This document shows, one piece after another, positions 2,739-16,038 of a stretch of DNA of 64,000 nt. The notes beneath the pieces were generated by a model. It searched no databases, was not told where the DNA came from, and saw only the letters and a program-made list of their open reading frames with translations. The stretch comes from Candidatus Aldehydirespirator sp. (GTDB lineage: Bacteria > Actinomycetota > Acidimicrobiia > Acidimicrobiales > Aldehydirespiratoraceae). Where the stretch lies: NCBI GenBank assembly GCA_965220645.1, contig OZ244836.1, positions 1,472,237-1,536,236 on the forward strand, given 5' to 3'. The number at the start of each line of letters is the position of its first letter. Position 1 is the first letter of the stretch. A program made the position numbers and the translations under genes.

Positions 2739-2935
2739 ATTGGCAGCGTTGGGTTCCCGGTTTGGCGTCGTCCACTGCCAGTTCGCGGATCGGGCTGGGG
2801 GGTGTTGGGGATTGGCAGCGTTGGGTTCCCGGTTTGGCGTCGTCCACTGCCAGTTCGCGGATCGGGCTGGGGGGTGTTGGGGATTGGCAGCGTTGGGTTC
2901 CCGGTTTGGCGTCGTCCGCTGCCAGTTCGCGGGGG
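2739..2935. repeat. 72-bp tandem repeat, 2.7 copies (copies 1 and 2 identical)
   Basis: The unit ATTGGCAGCGTTGGGTTCCCGGTTTGGCGTCGTCCACTGCCAGTTCGCGGATCGGGCTGGGGGGTGTTGGGG starts at 2739, 2811 and 2883. The third copy has one A>G change and then diverges after about 52 nt. It lies in the 323-nt divergent intergenic region between the SDR start (2651) and the CoA-transferase start (2975). Confidence 0.95.
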
Positions 2936-2974
2936 CGGTGGCGTGGTGGTTGCTGGCGCTCTACGGTCGGGCCG

Positions 2975-3850
2975 ATGGCCGACAAGCGCATGACCGAAGA
3001 CGAGGTGGTAGCCGAGCTCAGCAGCGGCATGACCATCGGCATCGGTGGCTGGGGCTCGCGCCGCAAGCCGATGTCGCTGGTGCGGGCCATCCTCCGCAGC
3101 GATCTGCGGGACCTTCACGTGGCGAGCTATGGCGGACCGGATGTCGGCTTGCTGTGCGCCGCGGGGCGCGTTCGGAAGATCACCTACGGCTTCGTGTCTC
3201 TCGACTCCATCCCGCTGGAGCCGCACTTCCGGATTGCCCGCCAGACCGGTTCCGTGGTGGCCCGCGAGTTCGACGAGGGCGCCTTCTACCTCGGCCTGCT
3301 GGCAGCGGTGCACCGGGTGCCCTTCTACCCGACCAGGGCGGGTCTCGGATCGGACATGCTCACCTACAACCCCGATCTCAAGACGGTGACGAGCCCCTAC
3401 GGCGACGGCACCGAACTGGTGGCCGTGCCGGCCTTCGACATCGACGTGTCGCTGGTGCACATGAACCGGGCCGACGCGGCCGGCAACGGGCAGTTCCTCG
3501 GACCGGACCTGTATTTCGACGACCTGTTCGCCATGGCCGCCAAGCGCACCTTCATGTCGTGCGAGCGGGTGGTGCCCACAGAGGACCTGCTGAAGGAGGG
3601 CTCGGTCCACACCCTCAAGATCCCGCGCCTGCACACCGACGGCGTCGTGGAGGCCCCTGGCGGCGCCCACTTCACCGAGTGCCCTCCCGACTACGGCCGC
3701 GACGAGGCGTTCCAGAGGGAGTACGCGACAACGGCGCGGGATCCCGAGGCTTGGGGCCAGTTCAAGGCCGACTGGCTGGACCTGCCCTCCCACGACGACT
3801 ACCGGGCTCGCCTAGCCGATCGGGCCGAGTCCGCCGGAGCAGAACGATGA
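2975..3850 (+). CDS. CoA-transferase subunit A (glutaconate/3-oxoacid CoA-transferase family)
   Basis: ORF 2762..3850, trimmed to the ATG at 2975 (MADKRMTEDEVVAELSSGMTIGIGGWGSRRKPMSLVRAI). The upstream part of the ORF consists of the tandem repeat. Confidence 0.85.
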   Translation: MADKRMTEDEVVAELSSGMTIGIGGWGSRRKPMSLVRAILRSDLRDLHVASYGGPDVGLLCAAGRVRKITYGFVSLDSIPLEPHFRIARQTGSVVAREFDEGAFYLGLLAAVHRVPFYPTRAGLGSDMLTYNPDLKTVTSPYGDGTELVAVPAFDIDVSLVHMNRADAAGNGQFLGPDLYFDDLFAMAAKRTFMSCERVVPTEDLLKEGSVHTLKIPRLHTDGVVEAPGGAHFTECPPDYGRDEAFQREYATTARDPEAWGQFKADWLDLPSHDDYRARLADRAESAGAER

Positions 3851-3893
3851 GCTGGCCCGTGCCCGCCCGGGAATTCGGATCGGAGAAGGCGCC

Positions 3894-4670
3894 ATGAGCG
3901 ACGCGACGATCGATGAGATCTGCCTGGTGGCGCTGGCCGAGGCCTTCCGGGGAGACGGCGAGCTGCTGTGCCATCCGATGGGTCCGTTCCCGGTGGCGGC
4001 GGGCAGGCTGGCACGGGCCAGCTTCGAGCCCGACCTCATGCTCACCGACACGATCGCCTACGCCGTGGTGGGCACGCTGCCGTTGGGGGTAACCGTTGAC
4101 GCTCCCGGCGGCGAGGACGAGGGCATCGTGGTCGAGGGCTACCTGCCGTTCCGCACGGTCTTCGACCAAGCCTGGTCGGGGCATCGCCACGTCGTGATGG
4201 GTGCCAGCCAGATCGACCGGCACGGAAACCAGAACTTCGCCGCCATCGGTGACTATCGAAAGCCCAAGGCCCAGCTTCTCGGTCTGCGCGGGGCGCCCGG
4301 CAACGTGATCAACCACACCACCAGCTACTGGATCCCCAACCAGGCTCGCGCCTTCTGCCAGAGCGTCGACGTGGTGTCCGGTCCGGGCCATGACCGGGTG
4401 GCGGTGCTGCCCGAGCCCAGCGGGCGTTTCCACGAGATCCGCAGGGTCGTGACGGAGCTCGCGGCCTACGACTTCGAGACTTGCGACCGCACCATGCGTC
4501 TGCGGTCCATCCATCCCGGCGTATCGCTTGAGGACGTCCTGGCAGCCTCCCCCTTCGAGCTCTCAGTGCCCGAAGATGTTCCGGCCAGCCGGCTCCCCAC
4601 CGACGAGGAACTGCACCTCATCCGCAACGTGATCGACCCCACGGGCATCCGCAAGCGCGAGTTTCGTTGA
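3894..4670 (+). CDS. CoA-transferase subunit B-like
   Basis: ORF 3894..4670. GGAGAAGG lies upstream of the ATG. It sits immediately downstream of subunit A, the typical A/B pair arrangement. Confidence 0.8.
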   Translation: MSDATIDEICLVALAEAFRGDGELLCHPMGPFPVAAGRLARASFEPDLMLTDTIAYAVVGTLPLGVTVDAPGGEDEGIVVEGYLPFRTVFDQAWSGHRHVVMGASQIDRHGNQNFAAIGDYRKPKAQLLGLRGAPGNVINHTTSYWIPNQARAFCQSVDVVSGPGHDRVAVLPEPSGRFHEIRRVVTELAAYDFETCDRTMRLRSIHPGVSLEDVLAASPFELSVPEDVPASRLPTDEELHLIRNVIDPTGIRKREFR

Positions 4671-4714
4671 CACTCAATACGCTGCCCCAGTTGACACTCA
4701 ATACGCTGCCCCAT
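4667..4714. repeat. 24-nt perfect tandem duplication (TTGACACTCAATACGCTGCCCCAG/T x2)
   Basis: The same 23-24 nt is read at 4667-4690 and 4691-4714. The first copy contains the TGA stop of the CoA-transferase B gene. It marks the left edge of the lower-GC patch. Confidence 0.9.
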
Positions 4715-4881
4715 AGGGCATTTGAATTGGGGCTTATGTCGGATGGTGCCGAAGGCCGGTGATGGCTAGGGGGTTTTGCGACGTGGCTTGTGGTGCATCA
4801 ACGCTTCGCCCAGTGCTTCGGCGCTGGGGGCGTTGACGGCGATGGGTTCTTCGTGCTGTTACCGGAGGACGGTGAAACGAC

Positions 4882-6102
4882 CTAGGGGCATTCTCGTTGT
4901 AGTACGGCCATCGTTTCGGCGTAGCCGTCGAGTGGGAACACGGCGGTACCGATGGCGACTTGGTCTTCCCAGTAGCCGTTCCATGACATGACGAACACGG
5001 TGGACGTGTCAGGGTCACGCGCTGCGGCATCCAGGTCGTCGGTCCATCCGACTGCGTCGAGCAGGCCGTCGCCTTCGCCTCGGAGACGCCATGACCCGAA
5101 TCCTGTGGTTCCGTCGTCAAACCCCCAGTCTGTGGCGATGAGATCAGTACCCGCAGGCGCATAGATGAAGGCGTTGGGCCACCACAACAGCCACGATCTC
5201 AGGCAGCTGACCCACAGCGCTGGGGCGAGGTCTGGTGTGGTCTGTGGTCCTTCCCAGTAGGTGGCTTGAACCTCTGCCCATGGAATGCCGTCCACATAGT
5301 CGATGTACCAACTCTGTGTCGGGGTAGGGGTCGTCTCTGGAACGCTGCCGACTGGTTCGGGATCGGCTGCGGCTGTTCGGTACCCGCTACGCAGTCTGGG
5401 CAGTTGCGACAACAGTTCCGAAGCGGTCACGGCGTAGCCGATGCCTTCCACGTCCACGTCGACGATCTTCTGAACCACCATCCCTGCCACGTCACCGCAC
5501 TCGGTGAGCAGTGGTCCGCCGCTGTTGCCGGGGTTCATGGCGGTGTCAGTCAGCAGCAACTCTCCCAAGAAGATGTCACGTTCAAGGCGTGAGATGACAC
5601 CGCGAGTGACCGACGGTTCGGACTCGCCGTAGAGCGGGTAACCCGCAGCCAGCACGTCCGAACCTACTCCCGGTGCATCTTGTGCCAGCAGAACCGTCGG
5701 CGATTCGGTGGCGGCATCCAACAACGCGACGTCGGTGTCGTGGTCGATGCCTACCACAGACGCTCCGATTTCCTTGGATCCGTGACGTAGCACAACCCCG
5801 TCTGAGTCGCCTACGACGTGCGCAGCGGTGATCCACTCGCCGTCACCGATATGGAACGCAGTACCGTGACCGTCTTCGGCTTCGACCATCCACACCGCGT
5901 CGAGCGCGCCCCGCAGTTCGCACGCTGCGGCCGTCGTTGTAGTGGTGGACCCGTTCTCGGTGGCGGCTGTGGTTGTGGCTGGTGCGGACACGGCGATGGT
6001 CGTGGCGGTGGTGATCGTGGGCGGCGCTGCCTGCGGATCGGTGGCACATCCCGCCAACGCCAACACCAACACCATCGCAGCAACGGCTGCGGTTCGGGAC
6101 AT
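4882..6102 (-). CDS. trypsin-like (S1/HtrA-type) serine protease lipoprotein with a C-terminal domain of about 170 aa and unknown function
   Basis: ORF 4882..6102. Lipobox VLALAGC. Catalytic triad contexts are WITAAHVV, DTDVALL and NPGNSGGPLL. I do not recognise the Trp-rich C-terminal half. Confidence 0.85.
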   Translation of the reverse strand: MSRTAAVAAMVLVLALAGCATDPQAAPPTITTATTIAVSAPATTTAATENGSTTTTTAAACELRGALDAVWMVEAEDGHGTAFHIGDGEWITAAHVVGDSDGVVLRHGSKEIGASVVGIDHDTDVALLDAATESPTVLLAQDAPGVGSDVLAAGYPLYGESEPSVTRGVISRLERDIFLGELLLTDTAMNPGNSGGPLLTECGDVAGMVVQKIVDVDVEGIGYAVTASELLSQLPRLRSGYRTAAADPEPVGSVPETTPTPTQSWYIDYVDGIPWAEVQATYWEGPQTTPDLAPALWVSCLRSWLLWWPNAFIYAPAGTDLIATDWGFDDGTTGFGSWRLRGEGDGLLDAVGWTDDLDAAARDPDTSTVFVMSWNGYWEDQVAIGTAVFPLDGYAETMAVLQRECP

Positions 6103-6338
6103 GGCGGCTCCCCTCGGCGCGGACTAGGGGGTTCTTTGCCGTCGAATACCGTGCACCCGAAACCGAAGGGAGCCTCGGGAACCCTATTGGTCCGCGTCAT
6201 GTTCGGATGCGATTACGGAAGCGGCTGACTTCCACAGCGTTCGACGGTAACCAGCAACCTAGACGGGGCCGTCCCAACGGACAAGCCCGGAGGGTCTGCC
6301 CACCGCGGACCATGCCTGCTCTAAGCTCGTCTCAAGAC

Positions 6339-6368
6339 GAACGCCGCCAGTTGCCACTGGCGGCGTTC
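6339..6368. other. perfect 13-bp stem / 4-nt loop hairpin
   Basis: GAACGCCGCCAGT-tgcc-ACTGGCGGCGTTC, read directly. It is intergenic, upstream of the protease on the minus strand and upstream of the 6400 small ORF on the plus strand. There is no clear U-tract. Confidence 0.6.
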
Positions 6369-6399
6369 AACGAGCCCATAGAGGAGGACCCGGACCTTG

Positions 6400-6603
6400 A
6401 TGAACACCAAGACCCTAGGAGAACGTGCCCGTGAACATGCGCCAAGGAACCGTCGGGTGAAGCCAGGCTTTCAGCCGCCGCTGGCGAACACCCTGTGGCA
6501 GTATCAACTTGAGGACGAATACTTGGAGCAGCTGCTCGCCGAGAACACGCAGCGGATGGCCGACCTGGATGAACAGGCAGCCAAGGGCCTGATCCCGCGA
6601 TGA
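6400..6603 (+). CDS. hypothetical small protein (67 aa)
   Basis: ORF 6397..6603. AGGAGGA lies 10 nt upstream of the ATG at 6400. No recognisable family. Confidence 0.35.
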   Translation: MNTKTLGERAREHAPRNRRVKPGFQPPLANTLWQYQLEDEYLEQLLAENTQRMADLDEQAAKGLIPR

Positions 6604-6652
6604 TCACGGGATCGGGACAAGCCGATCAGGATGCGATGACGAAGGCGATCCG

Positions 6653-6841
6653 GTGAGTTGTCTGTGCAGATGCGGCGAGTCCCCAGCCAGCGCTGAGAGT
6701 TCGTTCGTCCCCGGCCACGACGGGGTACTCATCCAGAAACTGCTGAACGCCATGGGCGGCCACGAACCCTTGCGCAACCTTGTAGAGGTCTACCTGCGTC
6801 GGCAAGTCAGCGACGACGACCTGACGTGGCGTCGCGTCTGA
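6653..6841 (+). CDS. hypothetical small protein (62 aa) with CxCxCG...FxPGHD motif
   Basis: ORF 6653..6841, GTG start. The N-terminus reads SCLCRCGESPASAESSFVPGHDGVL. Confidence 0.3.
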   Translation: MSCLCRCGESPASAESSFVPGHDGVLIQKLLNAMGGHEPLRNLVEVYLRRQVSDDDLTWRRV

Positions 6842-6874
6842 CGGTTCGCACTGCTTGGCCCAAACCCCTAGCAG

Positions 6875-7167
6875 TTACGCGACCACCCACTCGCGGAACC
6901 CAACATTGCTGTCGGCCAGCGCCGTGCCAGTGCGGGTGCTGAACCGGCGACGGCAGCCATGACACCAAAAACGCTGCGACGGATGCCGCGCACCGTCCTG
7001 CGCATCGTCACAGTCACAATGCGGACAGCGCACCCGTCAGGCCAGCGACGATCAATGAACCACGCCTCCGCCGCCGCGTCGTCAGGGAACCTGCGGAACA
7101 GTTCCGCCAGACTCAGACCCTGCCGGTCGCTGCGACCAGGAGCACGATGCTTGGAGTTCGTAGCCAT
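6875..7167 (-). pseudogene. IS1595-family (ISXO2-like) transposase remnant: N-terminal zinc-ribbon only, frameshifted, DDE domain absent
   Basis: ORF 6868..7236 reads MATNSKHRAPGRSDRQGLSLAELFRRFPDDAAAEAWFIDRRWPDG and then becomes nonsense. Shifting one frame after RWPDG restores VRCPHCDCDDAQDGARHPSQRFWCHGCRRRFSTRTGTALADSNVGFREWVVA*, which ends at TAA 6875-6877. Confidence 0.7.
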
Positions 7168-7247
7168 AACCCCACAGCAGCCAAGGGGTGTCACAGCACT
7201 ACAGCCTCCACTAGGGGTTGGCACCATCCGACACAAGCCCCTTTAAA

Positions 7248-7276
7248 TTGCGTTTTCTACGGAATTTCCGTAGAAT
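7248..7276 (+). promoter_or_regulatory. sigma70-type promoter candidate with an embedded palindromic operator
   Basis: TTGCGT (7248-7253), 17 nt, then TAGAAT (7271-7276). A 9-bp inverted repeat, TTCTACGGA-att-TCCGTAGAA (7255-7275), fills the spacer. The ATG at 7283 is 7 nt after the -10 box, so the mRNA may be leaderless. The local sequence is about 33% GC. Confidence 0.5.
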
Positions 7277-7282
7277 GCTTCT

Positions 7283-8618
7283 TATGATCACAAGTTACTT
7301 AGATTCATCGGGCACCAGTGCGCTACTGTCCTTCACCGCAAGAAACGTCCGTTGCTACCGTGACGAGGTCCACCTGTCGTTTCTTGGAACCCGGATGTCC
7401 GAGGAGGGTGTTGTCCGCCGTGTCTCGGTCGCAGGGAGCGACAGACCGATCTCGGTGTCGCCTGTCGCAGGGATCTTTGGCGCCAACGCCTCGGGCAAGA
7501 CGGCGGTCCTCGAAGCGATGGAGGACATGCGCATCGCGGTGATGAAGCCCTTCCATCGCAAGGATCCGACAGAATCGATGGGTCGTCGCCCCTTCCTGCT
7601 CGACGGAGAGAGCAGAGGACGCCAGTCGAGCTTCGAGACCGAACTCATCGTCGGGGGCGTCCGCTGGCAGTACGGGTTTGACATCGACGACCGCCGGGTT
7701 CTCAGCGAATACGCCTATCACTTCCCCAAAGGCAGGCAGGCGCTGGTCTTCCATCGAGAACCTGACAGCGTTGCCCTCGGGTCGTCTCTCCGATCCTCGG
7801 GCCGCGTGCTCCGAAGCCTCCTTCGCAGCCACTACCTGTTGCTCTCAGTAGCGGGCGTCGCAGAGATCGAAGGCTTGGAAGCGCTGTACGGGTGGTTCCA
7901 ATCGAATCTGTTGCTCACAAAGCCGACCAAGCGCGGCTGGGGTTCCGCCCTCACCGCCGATCTAGTGCAGTCGCCGCATACGAAGCCGAGCGTGCTGAGT
8001 CTGTTGCGGTATGCCGATCTCGGCGTTGTGGATGCTCACAAGGAGCCACCCGATCCCGAGTTGGTGGAGCGAGTGCGTCAGGCTCTTCGCGGCGCCCACA
8101 ACAGTCGTGAAGCGATCGGCACCGATGATGAGCTTGTGATCGAAGGAGCAATGAGGCTCACGCACTCCAGTCCTGCCGGGGAGTGGCAACTTGAGCCCGA
8201 GGACGAGTCCCAGGGCACGCAAGCGTGGCTCAGCTTGATCGGTCCGGCATTGAGCGCGTTGAACGGCGGGACAGTTCTGCTGGTCGATGAACTTGACGCG
8301 AGCCTGCACCCTCACATCGTGAGGAGTCTCATCAGGTTGTTTCAGGACGATCACACGAATCCGCGCTGCGCCCAACTCATCTTCAACTCGCATGACACGG
8401 GCGTGCTCGGAGACAGCGACCGGCGCTCTATTGGCCGCGACCAGATCTGGTTCACGAATAAGGACCTCGCTGGTGTCACTTCTCTCTATCCGCTCACGGA
8501 CTTTGCGCCACGGCGGGACGATGCGGTCGAGCGACGCTACCTCCAGGGTCGCTACGGAGCGGTTCCCTTGATGAACCCAGCTGACGCGGAGCGGGCGCTT
8601 GGCCTAGTAGACGCGTGA
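7283..8618 (+). CDS. AAA15/AAA_21-type ATPase (RloA/AbiLi-like)
   Basis: ORF 7218..8618, trimmed to the ATG at 7283. Walker A is GANASGKT, Walker B is LLVDELDASLHP, and FNSHD follows. N-terminus (LLSFTARNVRCYRDEVHLSF) is typical of this family. Confidence 0.85.
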
Positions 8619-9241
8619 ACCGGCCGCGCCGGAAGGTCCGCCGGAGAGTCGTCCCGCAAGGCGGGAGGACCTCTGAGAGAGTTCGCGTCATCCGGGTCCA
8701 CACGGAGGGGCGCGTGACGGAACGCGATTATCTAAACCATTGGGCCAGGCTCAACAGCGGCGTTCGGATCGACTGGGGCGAGTCCGGAGTTGATCCCATG
8801 AGCCTGGTCAGTCGGGCTCAGGCGGAACTCCGTCAGAGCAGCGTGAACACGCGGCGTCACGGCGTAGCCGACTTCGACGACACCTGGTGCGTGTTCGATG
8901 TTGATACTCACGCCAACGCCTCTCAAGCGATTCTGACTGCACAGCGGAGCGGAATCAGCATCGCGGTATCGAATCCCTGTTTCGAGATCTGGCTGGTGCT
9001 GCACTTGGAGGACCGACTAGGGCCTCTTTCGGGCTTGGAGATTCAGCGGCGAGCATCGCGTTCAGGTCTCGTGCGAAGAAAGAGCGTCCCGGAGGGCGCG
9101 TGGCGTGTCCTTGAAGACAACTATGAGGACGCCAGGCGGCGGGCAAGGGAGTTGGACGCTTGGCATGATGGCAACGATTCGCCTCCACGGTCCAATCCCA
9201 GTTCCGACGTCTGGCGACTCGTGGACCGCTTGCGATCATAG
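8615..9241 (+). CDS. RloB-like protein (AbiLii-like, Toprim-related)
   Basis: ORF 8615..9241. The GTG start overlaps the ATPase stop (GTGA). RloB signatures: HTEGRVTERDYL, WCVFDVDTH, SNPCFEIWLVLH. Confidence 0.8.
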   Translation: MNRPRRKVRRRVVPQGGRTSERVRVIRVHTEGRVTERDYLNHWARLNSGVRIDWGESGVDPMSLVSRAQAELRQSSVNTRRHGVADFDDTWCVFDVDTHANASQAILTAQRSGISIAVSNPCFEIWLVLHLEDRLGPLSGLEIQRRASRSGLVRRKSVPEGAWRVLEDNYEDARRRARELDAWHDGNDSPPRSNPSSDVWRLVDRLRS

Positions 9242-9270: not shown

Positions 9271-9795
9271 GTGACTCGGATGGGGGAGCGGCCGGTGGTG
9301 TACATGGTGTGCACCGGCAACGCGGCCCGATCGCCGATGGCCGCGGCCATGCTGCGAGACCTCGACACCGAGGGTCGACTCGATGTGCGCAGCGCAGGCA
9401 TCCTCGCGCTGGAGGGCCACCCGATGGGAACCCGCACCCGGTCGGCGCTGGCCCGCCACGGGCTTGTCGACCACGCCCACCGGTCCCGGCAGTTCCGCGC
9501 CACCGACGCAGCCGACGCCGATCTGGTGGTCGTGATGGAGCCACTGCACCTGTTGTGGATGAGACGCAACCTGTCTGAGGCAGCCCCGATCACCGCGTCG
9601 CTGCGCCGGTTGGCCCGCGACTTGCCCACCACCGGTGAGATCGGTCAGCGGATCGCCTCGCTCGGCTTGGCTTCACTTGACATGGAGCCGTGGGAGGAGA
9701 TCGTCGATCCCGGCGCTGGCGATCAAGAGGGCTTCGATCGCTGCTCCGACGATCTGCGGCTGTTGGTGGCCGAACTGCACCGTCGGTTGGCATGA
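9271..9795 (+). CDS. low-molecular-weight protein-tyrosine phosphatase / arsenate-reductase-fold protein
   Basis: ORF 9271..9795. P-loop VCTGNAARS (CX5RS). An alternative ATG lies at 9280. Confidence 0.85.
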   Translation: MTRMGERPVVYMVCTGNAARSPMAAAMLRDLDTEGRLDVRSAGILALEGHPMGTRTRSALARHGLVDHAHRSRQFRATDAADADLVVVMEPLHLLWMRRNLSEAAPITASLRRLARDLPTTGEIGQRIASLGLASLDMEPWEEIVDPGAGDQEGFDRCSDDLRLLVAELHRRLA

Positions 9796-13088: not shown

Positions 13089-13939
13089 TCGGCGATCCGC
13101 CGGCATCAGGTCGGCTAGAGGGCAAGTCTGCCCTCGTAACCGGGGGCGGCACCGGCATCGGGCGTGCCTGCGCGGCACGGCTGGCCGCGGAGGGAGCGAG
13201 CGTGACCATCTGCGGACGGACCGAGCCGACGCTCGCGGAAGCCGCCGCGGCTATTGAGTGCGGCGGCGGGGGTTCGGCGTCGTACGTGGTGGCCGACGTG
13301 ACCTCCGAGGACGACATGGCCCGGGCCGCGCAAGCCGCGGCCGACGATGACGGCCATCTGCACGGCGTGGTGGCCAATGCCGGCGGGGGCGGGCGAATGG
13401 GCCCGTACCACCTGCTCGACACCGACGATTTCAAGCGAGTCCTCAGCCTCAACGTGGTGGGCACCATGCTCACCATCAAGCACACGGTGGAGCGTCTGGC
13501 CGCGGCCGGTGGCGGGTCGTTCGTGGCAATGTCGTCGCTGGCCGGGAACGTCACCCACCCCTACTTCGGGGCGTACACCGCGGGGAAGGCCGGCATCGAG
13601 GCGATGGTCCGCAACGCGGCCGACGAGTTCGGACCGGCCGGTGTGCGCTTCAACGCGGTCAGGCCCGGCTTCATCGCCACCGAGATCATGGAGGCCATCC
13701 CCCGCGATTCCGCCGTGTACGACAGCTACGTGCAGAACACCCCGCTCGGCGGGGTGGGACAGCCCTCTGACGTGGCCGCACTGGTGGCGTTCCTGATCTC
13801 CGACGAGTCCCGCTGGATCACCGGCACCGCCATCAATGTCGACGGCGGGCACAGCCTGCGGCGCGGCCCCGACTTCGGATCGTTCCTGCCCTACGGCGAG
13901 GACGTGAAGTCAGGCCGGGCCCGCCCCGCCAGCCGCTAG
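13085..13939 (+). CDS. SDR family oxidoreductase
   Basis: Tail of ORF 13025..13939. The GTG at 13085 is in a GTGA overlap. Motifs: LEGKSALVTGGGTGIGRA, NAGG, YTAGKAG. Confidence 0.85.
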   Translation: MIGDPPASGRLEGKSALVTGGGTGIGRACAARLAAEGASVTICGRTEPTLAEAAAAIECGGGGSASYVVADVTSEDDMARAAQAAADDDGHLHGVVANAGGGGRMGPYHLLDTDDFKRVLSLNVVGTMLTIKHTVERLAAAGGGSFVAMSSLAGNVTHPYFGAYTAGKAGIEAMVRNAADEFGPAGVRFNAVRPGFIATEIMEAIPRDSAVYDSYVQNTPLGGVGQPSDVAALVAFLISDESRWITGTAINVDGGHSLRRGPDFGSFLPYGEDVKSGRARPASR

Positions 13940-16038
13940 ACGGCGCGCAGGCGCTCCCACTCGTCCAGCAGGCTGCTGTCGACCTCTCGCACCAGCCCGC
14001 CCAGCCACTGGATCACCTCGGCCAGACGGTCATCGACCGCAGCCGATGGCACGGTCTGCACCAGCGCCTTGTAGCAGTCGGTCAGGTAGCGCAGCACCAG
14101 ACCCTCGGAGCGCTTGAGCCCGTAACGGCTCACATACTGGTTGAAGGTGTCGGCGTGCTCGACCATGTCGCGCACCACCGACTTGGGGCTGGTCCGCAGG
14201 TGTCCGACCCACGGGTGATGGCGGGCGAAGGTGTCGAAGGCGGGCTCGATGAACTCGGCCTCGGGTTTCGGCCAGGTCACCTCGGCCAGCCGCGCCATCC
14301 GCTCCTCGTACTCGACGCCCTCCTCCTTCATGCGGGTCATCAGCTCGTCGCGGGCCTGGTCCCGCTGGGCCAGCAGAACCGCCATGGGATCCTCCAGCAC
14401 CGACTCGGCCACGCTGAGCACCTGCAGGTGGTAGTCGGGAACCTCGCGGTCAAGAACCGAGATGGCTTCCACCGCGAACAGCCCCAGCGGCTGGTTCAAC
14501 CGGAACTCGTCCTGGAGGTCGATGTTCACCCGCACCGGGCGGCCCGACTTGTCCGGCTCGTCCAGCACTTCCACGATCTCCGCGTCGATCAGCGACCGGA
14601 ACACCCCGACCGCCTTGCGGATGTGTCGACGCTGGCGAGCGCGGGGCTCGTGGTTGTCGACCAGCAGGCGCTTCATGGCCGCGCAGCCGTCGCCGGGCCG
14701 GTCCAGAACGTTGAGCATCATGGCGTGGGTCACGTCGAAGCTCGAATCCAGCGTCTCGGGCGTCCCGTCCCAGAGCCTGGTCAGGGTCTTGTCGTCGTAG
14801 TGGGCGTAGCCCCTCTCGGGTGGCTTCTTCCGGACCATTTTCCGGAGCTTCTTCGGGTCTCCCGCGGCCCGCATCTCGGCTCGCTTGTTCTCCACCGCGT
14901 GCTGGGGGGCCTGCACCCACACGCTCCCCACGGTGTCGAAGCCGCGCCGGCCGGCCCGCCCCGCGATCTGCTGGAAGTCCCGAACCGACAGCACCCGGGT
15001 GCGGCGGCCGTCGTACTTGTAGAGCTGGGTGAACAGCACGGTGCGGATGGGGACATTGACGCCCACCCCGAGCGTGTCGGTGCCGCAGATCAGCTTCAGG
15101 TGGCCCTGCTGGGCCAGCTTCTCGACCAGCAGCCGGTACTTGGGCAGCATCCCGGCGTGGTGCACGCCGATGCCGGCCAGCACGAAGCGGCGCAGATCCT
15201 TGCCGATGGGCGTGTCGAAGCGGAACCCGCCCACCGCCTCCTTCACCGCGGCCTTCTCATCCGCGTTGAGCACCTTGAGGCTGGTGAGGCTCTGGGCCCG
15301 GGCGGTGGCCCCCCTCTGGGTGAAGTGCACGACGTACACCGGGGCGCGGCCCGTGGAGAGCAGCTGCTCGATGGAGACGTGCAGCGGGGTCTCGCGGTAT
15401 TCGACATCGAGCGGGACCGGCCGGTCGGCCGAGGCGACAAGGGCGGTGTCGCGCCCGGTTCGGGCGGTCAGATCGCGGCGCAGGGCGCCCGTGTCGCCGA
15501 GGGTCGCCGACATCAGCAGGAACCGGGACTTGGGCAGCTCAAGCAGGGGAACCTGCCAGGCCCAGCCGCGGTCGCGGTCGCCGTAGTAGTGGAACTCGTC
15601 CATCACCACCAGGTCGGCCGCAGTGTCGGAGCCTGCTCGAAGGGCCCGCTGAGCCAGGATCTCCGCGGTGCAGGCAATCACACCGGCATCAGCGTTGACG
15701 GAGGCGTCCCCGGTGACCATGCCGACGGAGGACGGCCCGAAAGCGGCGGTGAGCTCGAAGAACTTCTCGCTCACCAGGGCCTTGATCGGAGCGGTGTAGA
15801 TGGCCCTGCGCCCCTGGGCCAGCATGGCGAACGCCCCGGCCAGGGCCACCAGCGACTTGCCCGATCCCGTGGGCGTGGACAGCACCACGTTCTCACCGGC
15901 CAGCAGCCGAAGGACCGCCTCCTCCTGGTGGGGATACAGCTCCAACCCGGAGTGAGCCGACCACTCGATGAAGGCGTCCAGCAACTCGTCGGAGCCGGGG
16001 GTGGCCGGCAGGAAGTCGCCGAGTGCGGGCAGGGCCAT
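13936..16038 (-). CDS. DEAD/DEAH-box (Ski2/HelY-like) helicase with DUF3516-type C-terminal region
   Basis: ORF 13936..16038. Motifs: PTGSGKS, DEFH, SATL, helicase C motifs (HHAGM, QIAGRAGRRG). Confidence 0.9.
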   Translation of the reverse strand: MALPALGDFLPATPGSDELLDAFIEWSAHSGLELYPHQEEAVLRLLAGENVVLSTPTGSGKSLVALAGAFAMLAQGRRAIYTAPIKALVSEKFFELTAAFGPSSVGMVTGDASVNADAGVIACTAEILAQRALRAGSDTAADLVVMDEFHYYGDRDRGWAWQVPLLELPKSRFLLMSATLGDTGALRRDLTARTGRDTALVASADRPVPLDVEYRETPLHVSIEQLLSTGRAPVYVVHFTQRGATARAQSLTSLKVLNADEKAAVKEAVGGFRFDTPIGKDLRRFVLAGIGVHHAGMLPKYRLLVEKLAQQGHLKLICGTDTLGVGVNVPIRTVLFTQLYKYDGRRTRVLSVRDFQQIAGRAGRRGFDTVGSVWVQAPQHAVENKRAEMRAAGDPKKLRKMVRKKPPERGYAHYDDKTLTRLWDGTPETLDSSFDVTHAMMLNVLDRPGDGCAAMKRLLVDNHEPRARQRRHIRKAVGVFRSLIDAEIVEVLDEPDKSGRPVRVNIDLQDEFRLNQPLGLFAVEAISVLDREVPDYHLQVLSVAESVLEDPMAVLLAQRDQARDELMTRMKEEGVEYEERMARLAEVTWPKPEAEFIEPAFDTFARHHPWVGHLRTSPKSVVRDMVEHADTFNQYVSRYGLKRSEGLVLRYLTDCYKALVQTVPSAAVDDRLAEVIQWLGGLVREVDSSLLDEWERLRAV

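Follow-up and report, generated by a model that had tools for sequence, protein, structure and literature searches.

The 64,000-nucleotide (nt) stretch of DNA analysed here (the window; contig OZ244836.1, positions 1,472,237 to 1,536,236) belongs to Candidatus Aldehydirespirator sp., whose genome (G000) comprises 3.59 Mb in two contigs. Within it lie two overlapping genes that resemble the AbiL abortive-infection system, namely an ABC-type ATPase gene and a gene of the RloB family. Position numbers are those of the window unless stated otherwise, and the features that make up the pair are the following.

7284..8618, + strand: AbiLi-type ABC (Rad50/SMC-like) ATPase, 444 amino acids (aa); Pfam AAA_21, PADLOC AbiLi
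8615..9241, + strand: RloB/AbiLii-type protein, 208 aa, GTG 8615 to TAG 9241; Pfam RloB, PADLOC AbiLii
8615..8618, + strand: GTGA start/stop overlap of the two genes, read from the sequence

The ATPase–RloB gene pair

The ATPase open reading frame is real, although the start at 7283 and the length of 445 aa given in a preliminary description of this DNA are not retained: the conserved ATG is at 7284 and yields 444 aa. A further in-frame ATG at 7275 falls within the -10 box of the predicted promoter and is missing in other alleles. Direct reading of both frames agrees with the earlier 208-aa RloB protein starting at 8615 and with the GTGA overlap at 8615-8618, and all the motifs quoted for the pair are found (GANASGKT at residues 66-73, LLVDELDASLHP, EGRVTERDY, FDVD, and NPCFEIW). 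A start/stop overlap (GTGA, ATGA, TTGA, or TGATG) is kept in all nine alleles known at this chromosomal site as well as in a paralogous pair, and the GTGA arrangement reads as translational coupling of the ATPase and RloB genes. The public automated gene call for RloB is 175 aa long and begins past the invariant Glu31; the longer frame starting at 8615 is therefore to be preferred. The nearest named homologues carry the label “MAG: Acidimicrobiaceae bacterium”, which places the host in the Acidimicrobiia of the Actinomycetota.

The ATPase matches Pfam AAA_21 with an E value of 9.5e-32 (111.7 bits, cut-off 27) and the PADLOC model AbiLi PDLC02335 with 8.1e-80 (266 bits), the latter being the top of 46 matches. 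Its motifs include Walker A (G66-T73, with K72), Q129, the signature E308-S-Q-G-T312, Walker B (D335-E336), and the H-loop H370, all of which are invariant or nearly so in a 61-sequence alignment. In the AlphaFold2 (AF2) model (predicted local distance difference test score, pLDDT, 81), the sole poorly predicted internal stretch, residues 271-284, is also the most variable segment. Foldseek relates this model to Rad50, to the retron/Septu PtuA ATPases, and to the OLD nuclease 6p74 (E 1e-9 to 4e-8). The full motif set and the predicted ABC fold place the protein among the ABC / Rad50-SMC-like ATPases.

The partner matches Pfam RloB (PF13707) with an E value of 5.7e-30 (105.4 bits, cut-off 31.5) and AbiLii PDLC02337 with 1.7e-22, its single PADLOC match. 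Of the two Pfam ATPase families named in the preliminary description, AAA_21 is thus borne out along with RloB, while AAA_15 stays below its cut-off (27.1 against 32.1 bits). Ten residues are invariant among 62 RloB sequences: E31, G32, T35, E36, D95, D97, H99, E124, H130, and K156. The AF2 model (pLDDT 86.5) starts with a disordered Arg-rich tail (residues 1-23) followed by a beta-alpha-beta core. Judged by these alignments, the catalytic-type residues appear intact in both proteins: K72, D335/E336, and H370 in the ATPase and E31, E36, D95, D97, and E124 in RloB. An NCBIfam search of the two proteins returned nothing informative, and sequence and profile searches of the PDB sequences found no relative of solved structure for either.

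An AbiLi match and an AbiLii match on adjacent same-strand genes (here with a 4-nt overlap) are what PADLOC defines as AbiL. The AbiL pairs of Lactococcus lactis plasmids have the same gene order, with an ABC-type ATPase of ~440 aa followed by an overlapping RloB-family protein of ~200 aa. Compared with the second “abortive phage resistance protein” of the Lactococcus prophage proPhi7, the RloB protein shows 24% identity (E 2e-7), and the motifs TEG..TE, FDxD, and N..E.WL.LH of the AbiL-like prophage pair align with it. Unlike lactococcal AbiL, the pair in the window (~24% identical) resides on a high-GC Acidimicrobiaceae chromosome rather than a plasmid, its RloB has an Arg-rich N-terminal tail, and its promoter looks leaderless. 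Lactococcal AbiL is an abortive-infection system that acts after transcription (PMC13064643), and abortive phage resistance by AbiL is lost without abiLii, as far as the account of Deng et al. 1999 given in that review goes. The assignment to an AbiL/RloAB-like family made in the preliminary description is right by both Pfam and PADLOC, and the pair is very probably a defence module of the AbiL family.

The family is widespread: the ATPase has over 3,378 relatives at E<=1e-10, and members occur on 64 plasmid and 8 phage records; outside the genus but within the same class, RloB was found in only 5 of 300 other genomes. A Rhodococcus plasmid carries a similar pair annotated “ATP-binding protein + RloB family protein”. 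The solitary state of the pair had been regarded as unusual. It is not, since the PADLOC AbiL system consists of AbiLi and AbiLii alone and solitary pairs occur elsewhere, one on the Rhodococcus plasmid and another at the end of a prophage in Lactococcus.

The pair does lack a neighbouring restriction-modification (R-M) system, as had been noted: the only Methylase_S and N6_Mtase (type I-like) matches in the genome lie at 2.925 Mb and the pair at 1.480 Mb. RloA/RloB of the type I R-M (hsd) loci of Campylobacter jejuni combine the same RloB family, PF13707, with an ATPase partner, and on the strength of that family membership the pair might be regarded as an accessory of an R-M system. This reading has hardly any likelihood: unlike its C. 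jejuni counterparts, the pair stands outside an hsd locus, with the sole type I-like hsdM/hsdS 1.45 Mb away, metabolic genes flank it directly, and no R-M gene is present at any of the nine occupied sites.

A presence/absence site across the genus

Upstream of the pair are sirohaem/uroporphyrin methylase genes, a short-chain dehydrogenase (SDR) gene, and the genes for the CoA-transferase A and B subunits (2762-4670); downstream are genes for a low-molecular-weight phosphatase (9271-9795), an isochorismatase, a protein with a mycothiol-dependent maleylpyruvate isomerase (MDMPI) domain, and others. The site 3′ of CoA-transferase B was read in 27 species of the genus, G000 included (genomes are given by G numbers). 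An AbiL pair lies between the CoA-transferase B and phosphatase genes in nine of the 27, and in at least 14 species these flanking genes are 17-174 bp apart. Rather than being a one-off island, the pair represents one of several alleles at a site that varies between presence and absence across the genus, and the genome harbors a second, divergent pair.

The alleles differ widely. ATPase/RloB identities to the pair in the window are 98/76% in G046, 79/60-69% in G047, 78/63% in G008, 67/65% in G020, 60/60% in G054, 59/54-78% in G053, 53/38% in G017, and 53-57/41% in G023, with a CoA-transferase B flank that is 88-92% identical in occupied species. Across most of the genus this flank is 86-92% identical, and in four outlying species 75-82%. 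Three of the nine copies carry single frameshifts, in the ATPase of G023 and in the RloB of G047 and G053, for which assembly errors are possible.

Comparison of occupied and empty sites delimits the cassette at its right-hand end.

9236..9241, + strand: right cassette junction; rloB of the window ends TCA TAG, then GGTTCAGCCGC; the CoA-transferase gene of the empty site ends TCG TAG GGTTCAGCCGC

One class of empty site has ...GAGTTCCG(C/G) TCG TAG GGTTCAGCCGC at the end of the CoA-transferase gene. When the site is occupied, that gene ends in CGC TAG and rloB in CGG TCG TAG GGTTCAGCCGC. The compared junctions therefore place the cassette within the last two codons of CoA-transferase B, with RloB using the original Ser-stop. 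In another group (G018, G042, G043, and G044) the empty site reads CGCTAGCGG|CGGGAGACGGG, in which the left junction seen in G047 meets the right flank seen in G008 at a GCGG microhomology. This sequence is a deletion scar in the clade that holds the occupied genomes G008 and G047. The junctions of the G017/G023 allele differ from those described.

Other irregularities occur around the site. At some empty sites (G048, G049), short duplications or fillers of 100-170 bp separate the CoA-transferase and phosphatase genes, and in G048 the terminal ~30 nt of the CoA-transferase gene are repeated; such fillers are possibly footprints of past cassette turnover. In G008 (C1:594000-613900) the block of SDR and CoA-transferase A/B genes has the opposite orientation with respect to the AbiL-phosphatase block, and the hotspot of that genome thus borders a local rearrangement.

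A chimeric structure of rloB emerges from sliding-window identity to G046.

8888..9190, + strand: recombination mosaic, 3′ half of rloB from the FDVD codons onward

From 7288 to 8887 identity to G046 is 93-100% per 100-nt window and at least 96% after the first; from 8888 to ~9190 it is 61-65%, returning to 87-96% in the phosphatase gene. At the protein level, the N-terminal part of RloB is 96% and the C-terminal part 63% identical to that of G046. The mosaic amounts to a single recombination breakpoint in rloB. Compared with the other five intact alleles at the site, the C-terminal half is 63-66% identical in four cases and 38% in that of G017. The notion that this half is in general a hypervariable, swappable specificity cassette was rejected; across the family, its per-column entropy does not exceed that of the N-terminal half.

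By RpoB, the closest relatives of G000 (97%) are empty (G011, G012, G022, G041) or carry a 53% allele (G023), and RpoB of G046 is 95% identical. Allele type is thus not predicted by species relatedness. Together with the high nucleotide identity over 7288-8887, this shows a recent horizontal exchange with G046, broken in rloB at the FDVD codons. In 11 genomes (G008, G016, G018, G019, G021, G024, G042, G043, G044, G047, and G051) the match to RpoB breaks in two near residue 257 of the 700-aa query, which points to a clade-specific beta-subunit insertion and was used as a clade marker.

The second ATPase–RloB pair of the genome (C1:1139363-1141320) lies 340 kb away and is 42%/38% identical to the pair in the window. 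It matches the two PADLOC models named above, its genes overlap as TTGA, and its GC content is 0.60-0.64. Its 2.0-kb cassette is 83% identical at the nucleotide level to one in another context in G012, the flanks of which do not match. Because the similarity is confined to the 2.0-kb cassette, that cassette is the mobile unit. A low-GC patch around the first pair, noted earlier, is real, with GC at 0.59-0.64 over ~4500-9000 and 0.68-0.73 around it. The behavior of the cassette in the population looks like that of defence genes: presence/absence, allele hyperdiversity, decay, deletion, transfer, and a GC-poor cassette.

Occupation of one chromosomal site in nine species could also be expected of a pair domesticated for a cellular, non-defence role. 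This reading is very improbable, given that the catalytic residues are intact, the site is empty in most species, the alleles are hyperdiverse and horizontally exchanged, and three of nine copies are broken, all of which is at odds with a conserved housekeeping function.

Promoter region and adjoining IS1595-derived element

Directly upstream of the ATPase gene lie a predicted promoter and a palindrome.

7248..7276, + strand: cassette promoter; -35 box TTGCGT (7248-7253), 17-nt spacer, -10 box TAGAAT (7271-7276), 7 nt to the ATG at 7284
7255..7275, no strand assigned: inverted repeat TTCTACGGA-ATT-TCCGTAGAA with 9-bp arms, which fills the promoter spacer and overlaps the -10 box

The layout of TTGnnn, 17 nt, a TAGAAT-like box, 7 nt, and ATG is common to all nine alleles, whose proteins are 53-98% identical, and the paralogous pair has a similar one (TTGAAA, 17 nt, GATATT, 6 nt, ATG). 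This conservation indicates that the cassette bears its own promoter and that its mRNA is probably leaderless. The inverted repeat is partly kept across alleles, with one both-sided change (C:G in G054, A:T in G053); G008 and G047 have a degenerate version, and the paralogue has another inverted repeat at the equivalent position. The repeat may be an operator, possibly for autorepression. Alternatively, it could be the terminator hairpin of the upstream CoA-transferase operon. The best explanation of the locus as a whole, and a likely one, is a self-contained 2-kb AbiL-family defence cassette with its own leaderless-type promoter, situated in a chromosomal hotspot.

The “IS remnant” (insertion sequence, IS) of the preliminary description does adjoin the pair. 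It is, however, part of a separate element of 2.5 kb and does not explain how the pair was acquired.

4729..7241, no strand assigned: IS1595-derived element of 2,513 bp, directly 5′ of the -35 box; not in the module
6868-7236, minus strand: frameshifted transposase N-terminus, PF12760 (Zn_ribbon_IS1595)
4882-6102, minus strand: lipoprotein S1 protease gene, Trypsin_2 1.6e-21, lipobox LAGC

An imperfect inverted repeat of 39 nt marks either end of the element (4729-4767, 7203-7241), which is flanked by an 8-bp target duplication, TTTGAATT (4721-4728) and TTTAAATT (7242-7249), of which seven of eight positions are identical. It occurs once in the genome. Since the zinc ribbon of the transposase reaches 29.6 bits against PF12760 (cut-off 25.4) only with one frameshift read through and no DDE domain is left, the element is a decayed IS1595 derivative. 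None of the eight other occupied genomes, G046 included, has it at this site. The idea that it carried the pair in was rejected, as the ATPase of G046 is 98% identical and the element is missing there; it inserted later than the cassette and in this genome only.

The S1 protease within the element has a Trp-rich C-terminal half of ~190 aa with no Pfam match. It matches PADLOC RT-Protease_XI (1.9e-17) and Avs1b (4e-5) over the generic protease domain only, and a search of the genus gave no relative more than 42% identical. As a third component of the module it was rejected, on account of its lipoprotein signal, its position inside the IS-derived element, its absence at the other occupied sites, and its lack of close relatives in the genus.

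A perfect 24-bp tandem duplication (GTTGACACTCAATACGCTGCCCCA, twice) spans 4666-4713; its first base is 2 nt before the TGA stop of CoA-transferase B, which it includes, and 8 nt separate its end from the target duplication of the element. In G046 this sequence is present as a single copy. Further downstream, a DEAD/DEAH helicase of 700 aa (13936-16038, minus strand; DUF3516, 5e-143) partially matches the Hachiman HamB and PDC-M23B helicase models. Because these matches span the helicase core only, it is probably a housekeeping Ski2-like helicase.

Effector chemistry and a tentative mechanism

The classical Toprim arrangement, reportedly set out by Aravind, Leipe and Koonin in 1998, consists of a four-strand parallel sheet with a Glu after strand 1 and a DxD after strand 3. 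In the RloB model, E31 comes right after strand 1 (24-30) and D95/D97 end strand 3 (89-95). The placement of the Glu and the DxD on the predicted topology thus follows the classical rule (62 sequences, AF2 model). The preliminary description had likened the pair to systems with a split ATPase and Toprim-like partner; the ATPase has a Rad50/PtuA/OLD-like fold, and Foldseek and hhalign gave no link between RloB and Toprim. A Toprim-like nature of RloB, as argued from motif positions, predicted topology, and the literature, could not be shown.

Among characterized systems, PARIS (AriA with the Toprim tRNase AriB) likewise pairs a split ABC ATPase with a small partner of nuclease type and offers the best mechanistic template at hand. 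The PARIS AriA model matches the ATPase in the window at 8.9e-30, although AbiLi matches it far better (8.1e-80), and, unlike in PARIS, the second protein is RloB rather than DUF4435/AriB. P2 OLD and Gabija GajA share with the pair a Rad50-like ATPase fold (6p74) and the Glu and DxD arrangement. They differ in that the domains of the pair are on two polypeptides, and neither sequence nor Foldseek similarity between RloB and the OLD Toprim domain was detected. Published trees group AbiL beside PARIS as an ABC ATPase with a Toprim partner (PMC11464382; PMC13064643), while a review notes poor structural superposition (PMC13064643). Both AriB and P2 OLD are tRNases (PMC12409363; bioRxiv 10.64898/2026.07.10.737580).

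By analogy with these systems, a model of caged-nuclease release can be put forward, although tentatively and with somewhat less than even confidence. In such a model, (i) an oligomer of the ATPase would hold RloB inactive, as in PARIS AriA/AriB and P2 OLD; (ii) a phage-made trigger would shift the conformation of the ATPase in an ATP-dependent manner; (iii) the released or activated RloB would cut nucleic acid via its Glu/DxD metal site; and (iv) translation would halt and the infection abort. The analogy leans slightly toward RNA over DNA as the target of RloB, and tRNA would be the likeliest substrate because both related characterized effectors, AriB and P2 OLD, are tRNases. The palindrome in the promoter spacer may permit autorepression.

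Several observations weigh against this reading. The search of the PDB with the RloB model by Foldseek gave no Toprim or OLD structure and nothing below an E value of 1e-3, the best matches being unrelated Rossmann-like folds (E 5.7e-3); the same search of BFVD gave another “RloB-like protein” only and no Toprim. When the RloB alignment was compared by hhalign with 14 OLD-like Toprim domains from the phylum, EGxTE alone aligned, without significance. The 62 members of the RloB family match only RloB in Pfam at E<=10, with no DUF4435 or OLD-like_TOPRIM, and the RloB protein has no match to the AriB models of PADLOC at E<=0.01. The mechanism of AbiL itself is still unsolved (PMC13064643); the preliminary description had called its trigger and effector chemistry poorly defined, and by the same review they still are. 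Lastly, G023 combines a frameshifted ATPase with an intact rloB, which argues against a constitutively toxic RloB that needs the ATPase as an antitoxin, unless the lost coupling silences RloB.

The G023 allele also bears on the proposal that the pair is mainly a toxin-antitoxin (TA) addiction module, in which RloB would be the toxic nuclease and the ATPase the antitoxin, kept by post-segregational killing. AAA antitoxins paired with TOPRIM_OLD-domain toxins were predicted and experimentally explored in the NetFlax study (PMC10440598), and PARIS behaves as a TA pair (PMC13064643); the translational coupling and possibly autoregulatory palindrome are TA-like as well. This proposal is nevertheless improbable. 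Clean deletions and frameshifted copies at the chromosomal site mean that the pair is easily lost, G023 retains rloB with a broken ATPase, and TA behavior and defence are not exclusive of one another.

An equally improbable alternative is a mode of action like that of OLD class 2 (Gabija), with a constitutive ATPase-nuclease complex that would bind and nick phage DNA directly and that involves neither abortive infection nor release of a nuclease. In its favor, Foldseek relates the ATPase model to Rad50 and to the OLD nuclease 6p74, and the Arg-rich disordered tail of RloB could bind either type of nucleic acid. Against it, the ATPase has neither a long coiled coil nor a fused nuclease. Moreover, lactococcal AbiL is abortive and acts after transcription (PMC13064643), and P2 OLD as well as PARIS, the closest split ATPase/Toprim system, cleave tRNA.

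The most specific form of the caged-nuclease model, a PARIS-like caged tRNase whose promoter would be leaderless, controlled by the palindrome, and repressed by the complex itself, is rather unlikely. If it were true, the nine alleles would be ready-made chimeras for mapping the parts that specify trigger and target, among them a 98%-identical ATPase with a 63%-identical RloB C-terminal half.

AbiL-type pairs are common and are detected by standard tools such as PADLOC, and the find in itself matters little. The hotspot, the scar, the chimera, and the leaderless promoter are useful details that establish no new principle, and the public gene call that cuts RloB before its catalytic glutamate is corrected. 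The new point is that a 2-kb cassette is gained and lost at one fixed chromosomal site across a genus. This genus supplies, at one site, compact intact alleles of ~2 kb that include their own promoter, a natural chimera, frameshift knock-outs in either gene, and isogenic-like empty sites, which can be used for dissecting the specificity of the ATPase and RloB and for following the turnover of small defence cassettes without integrases.

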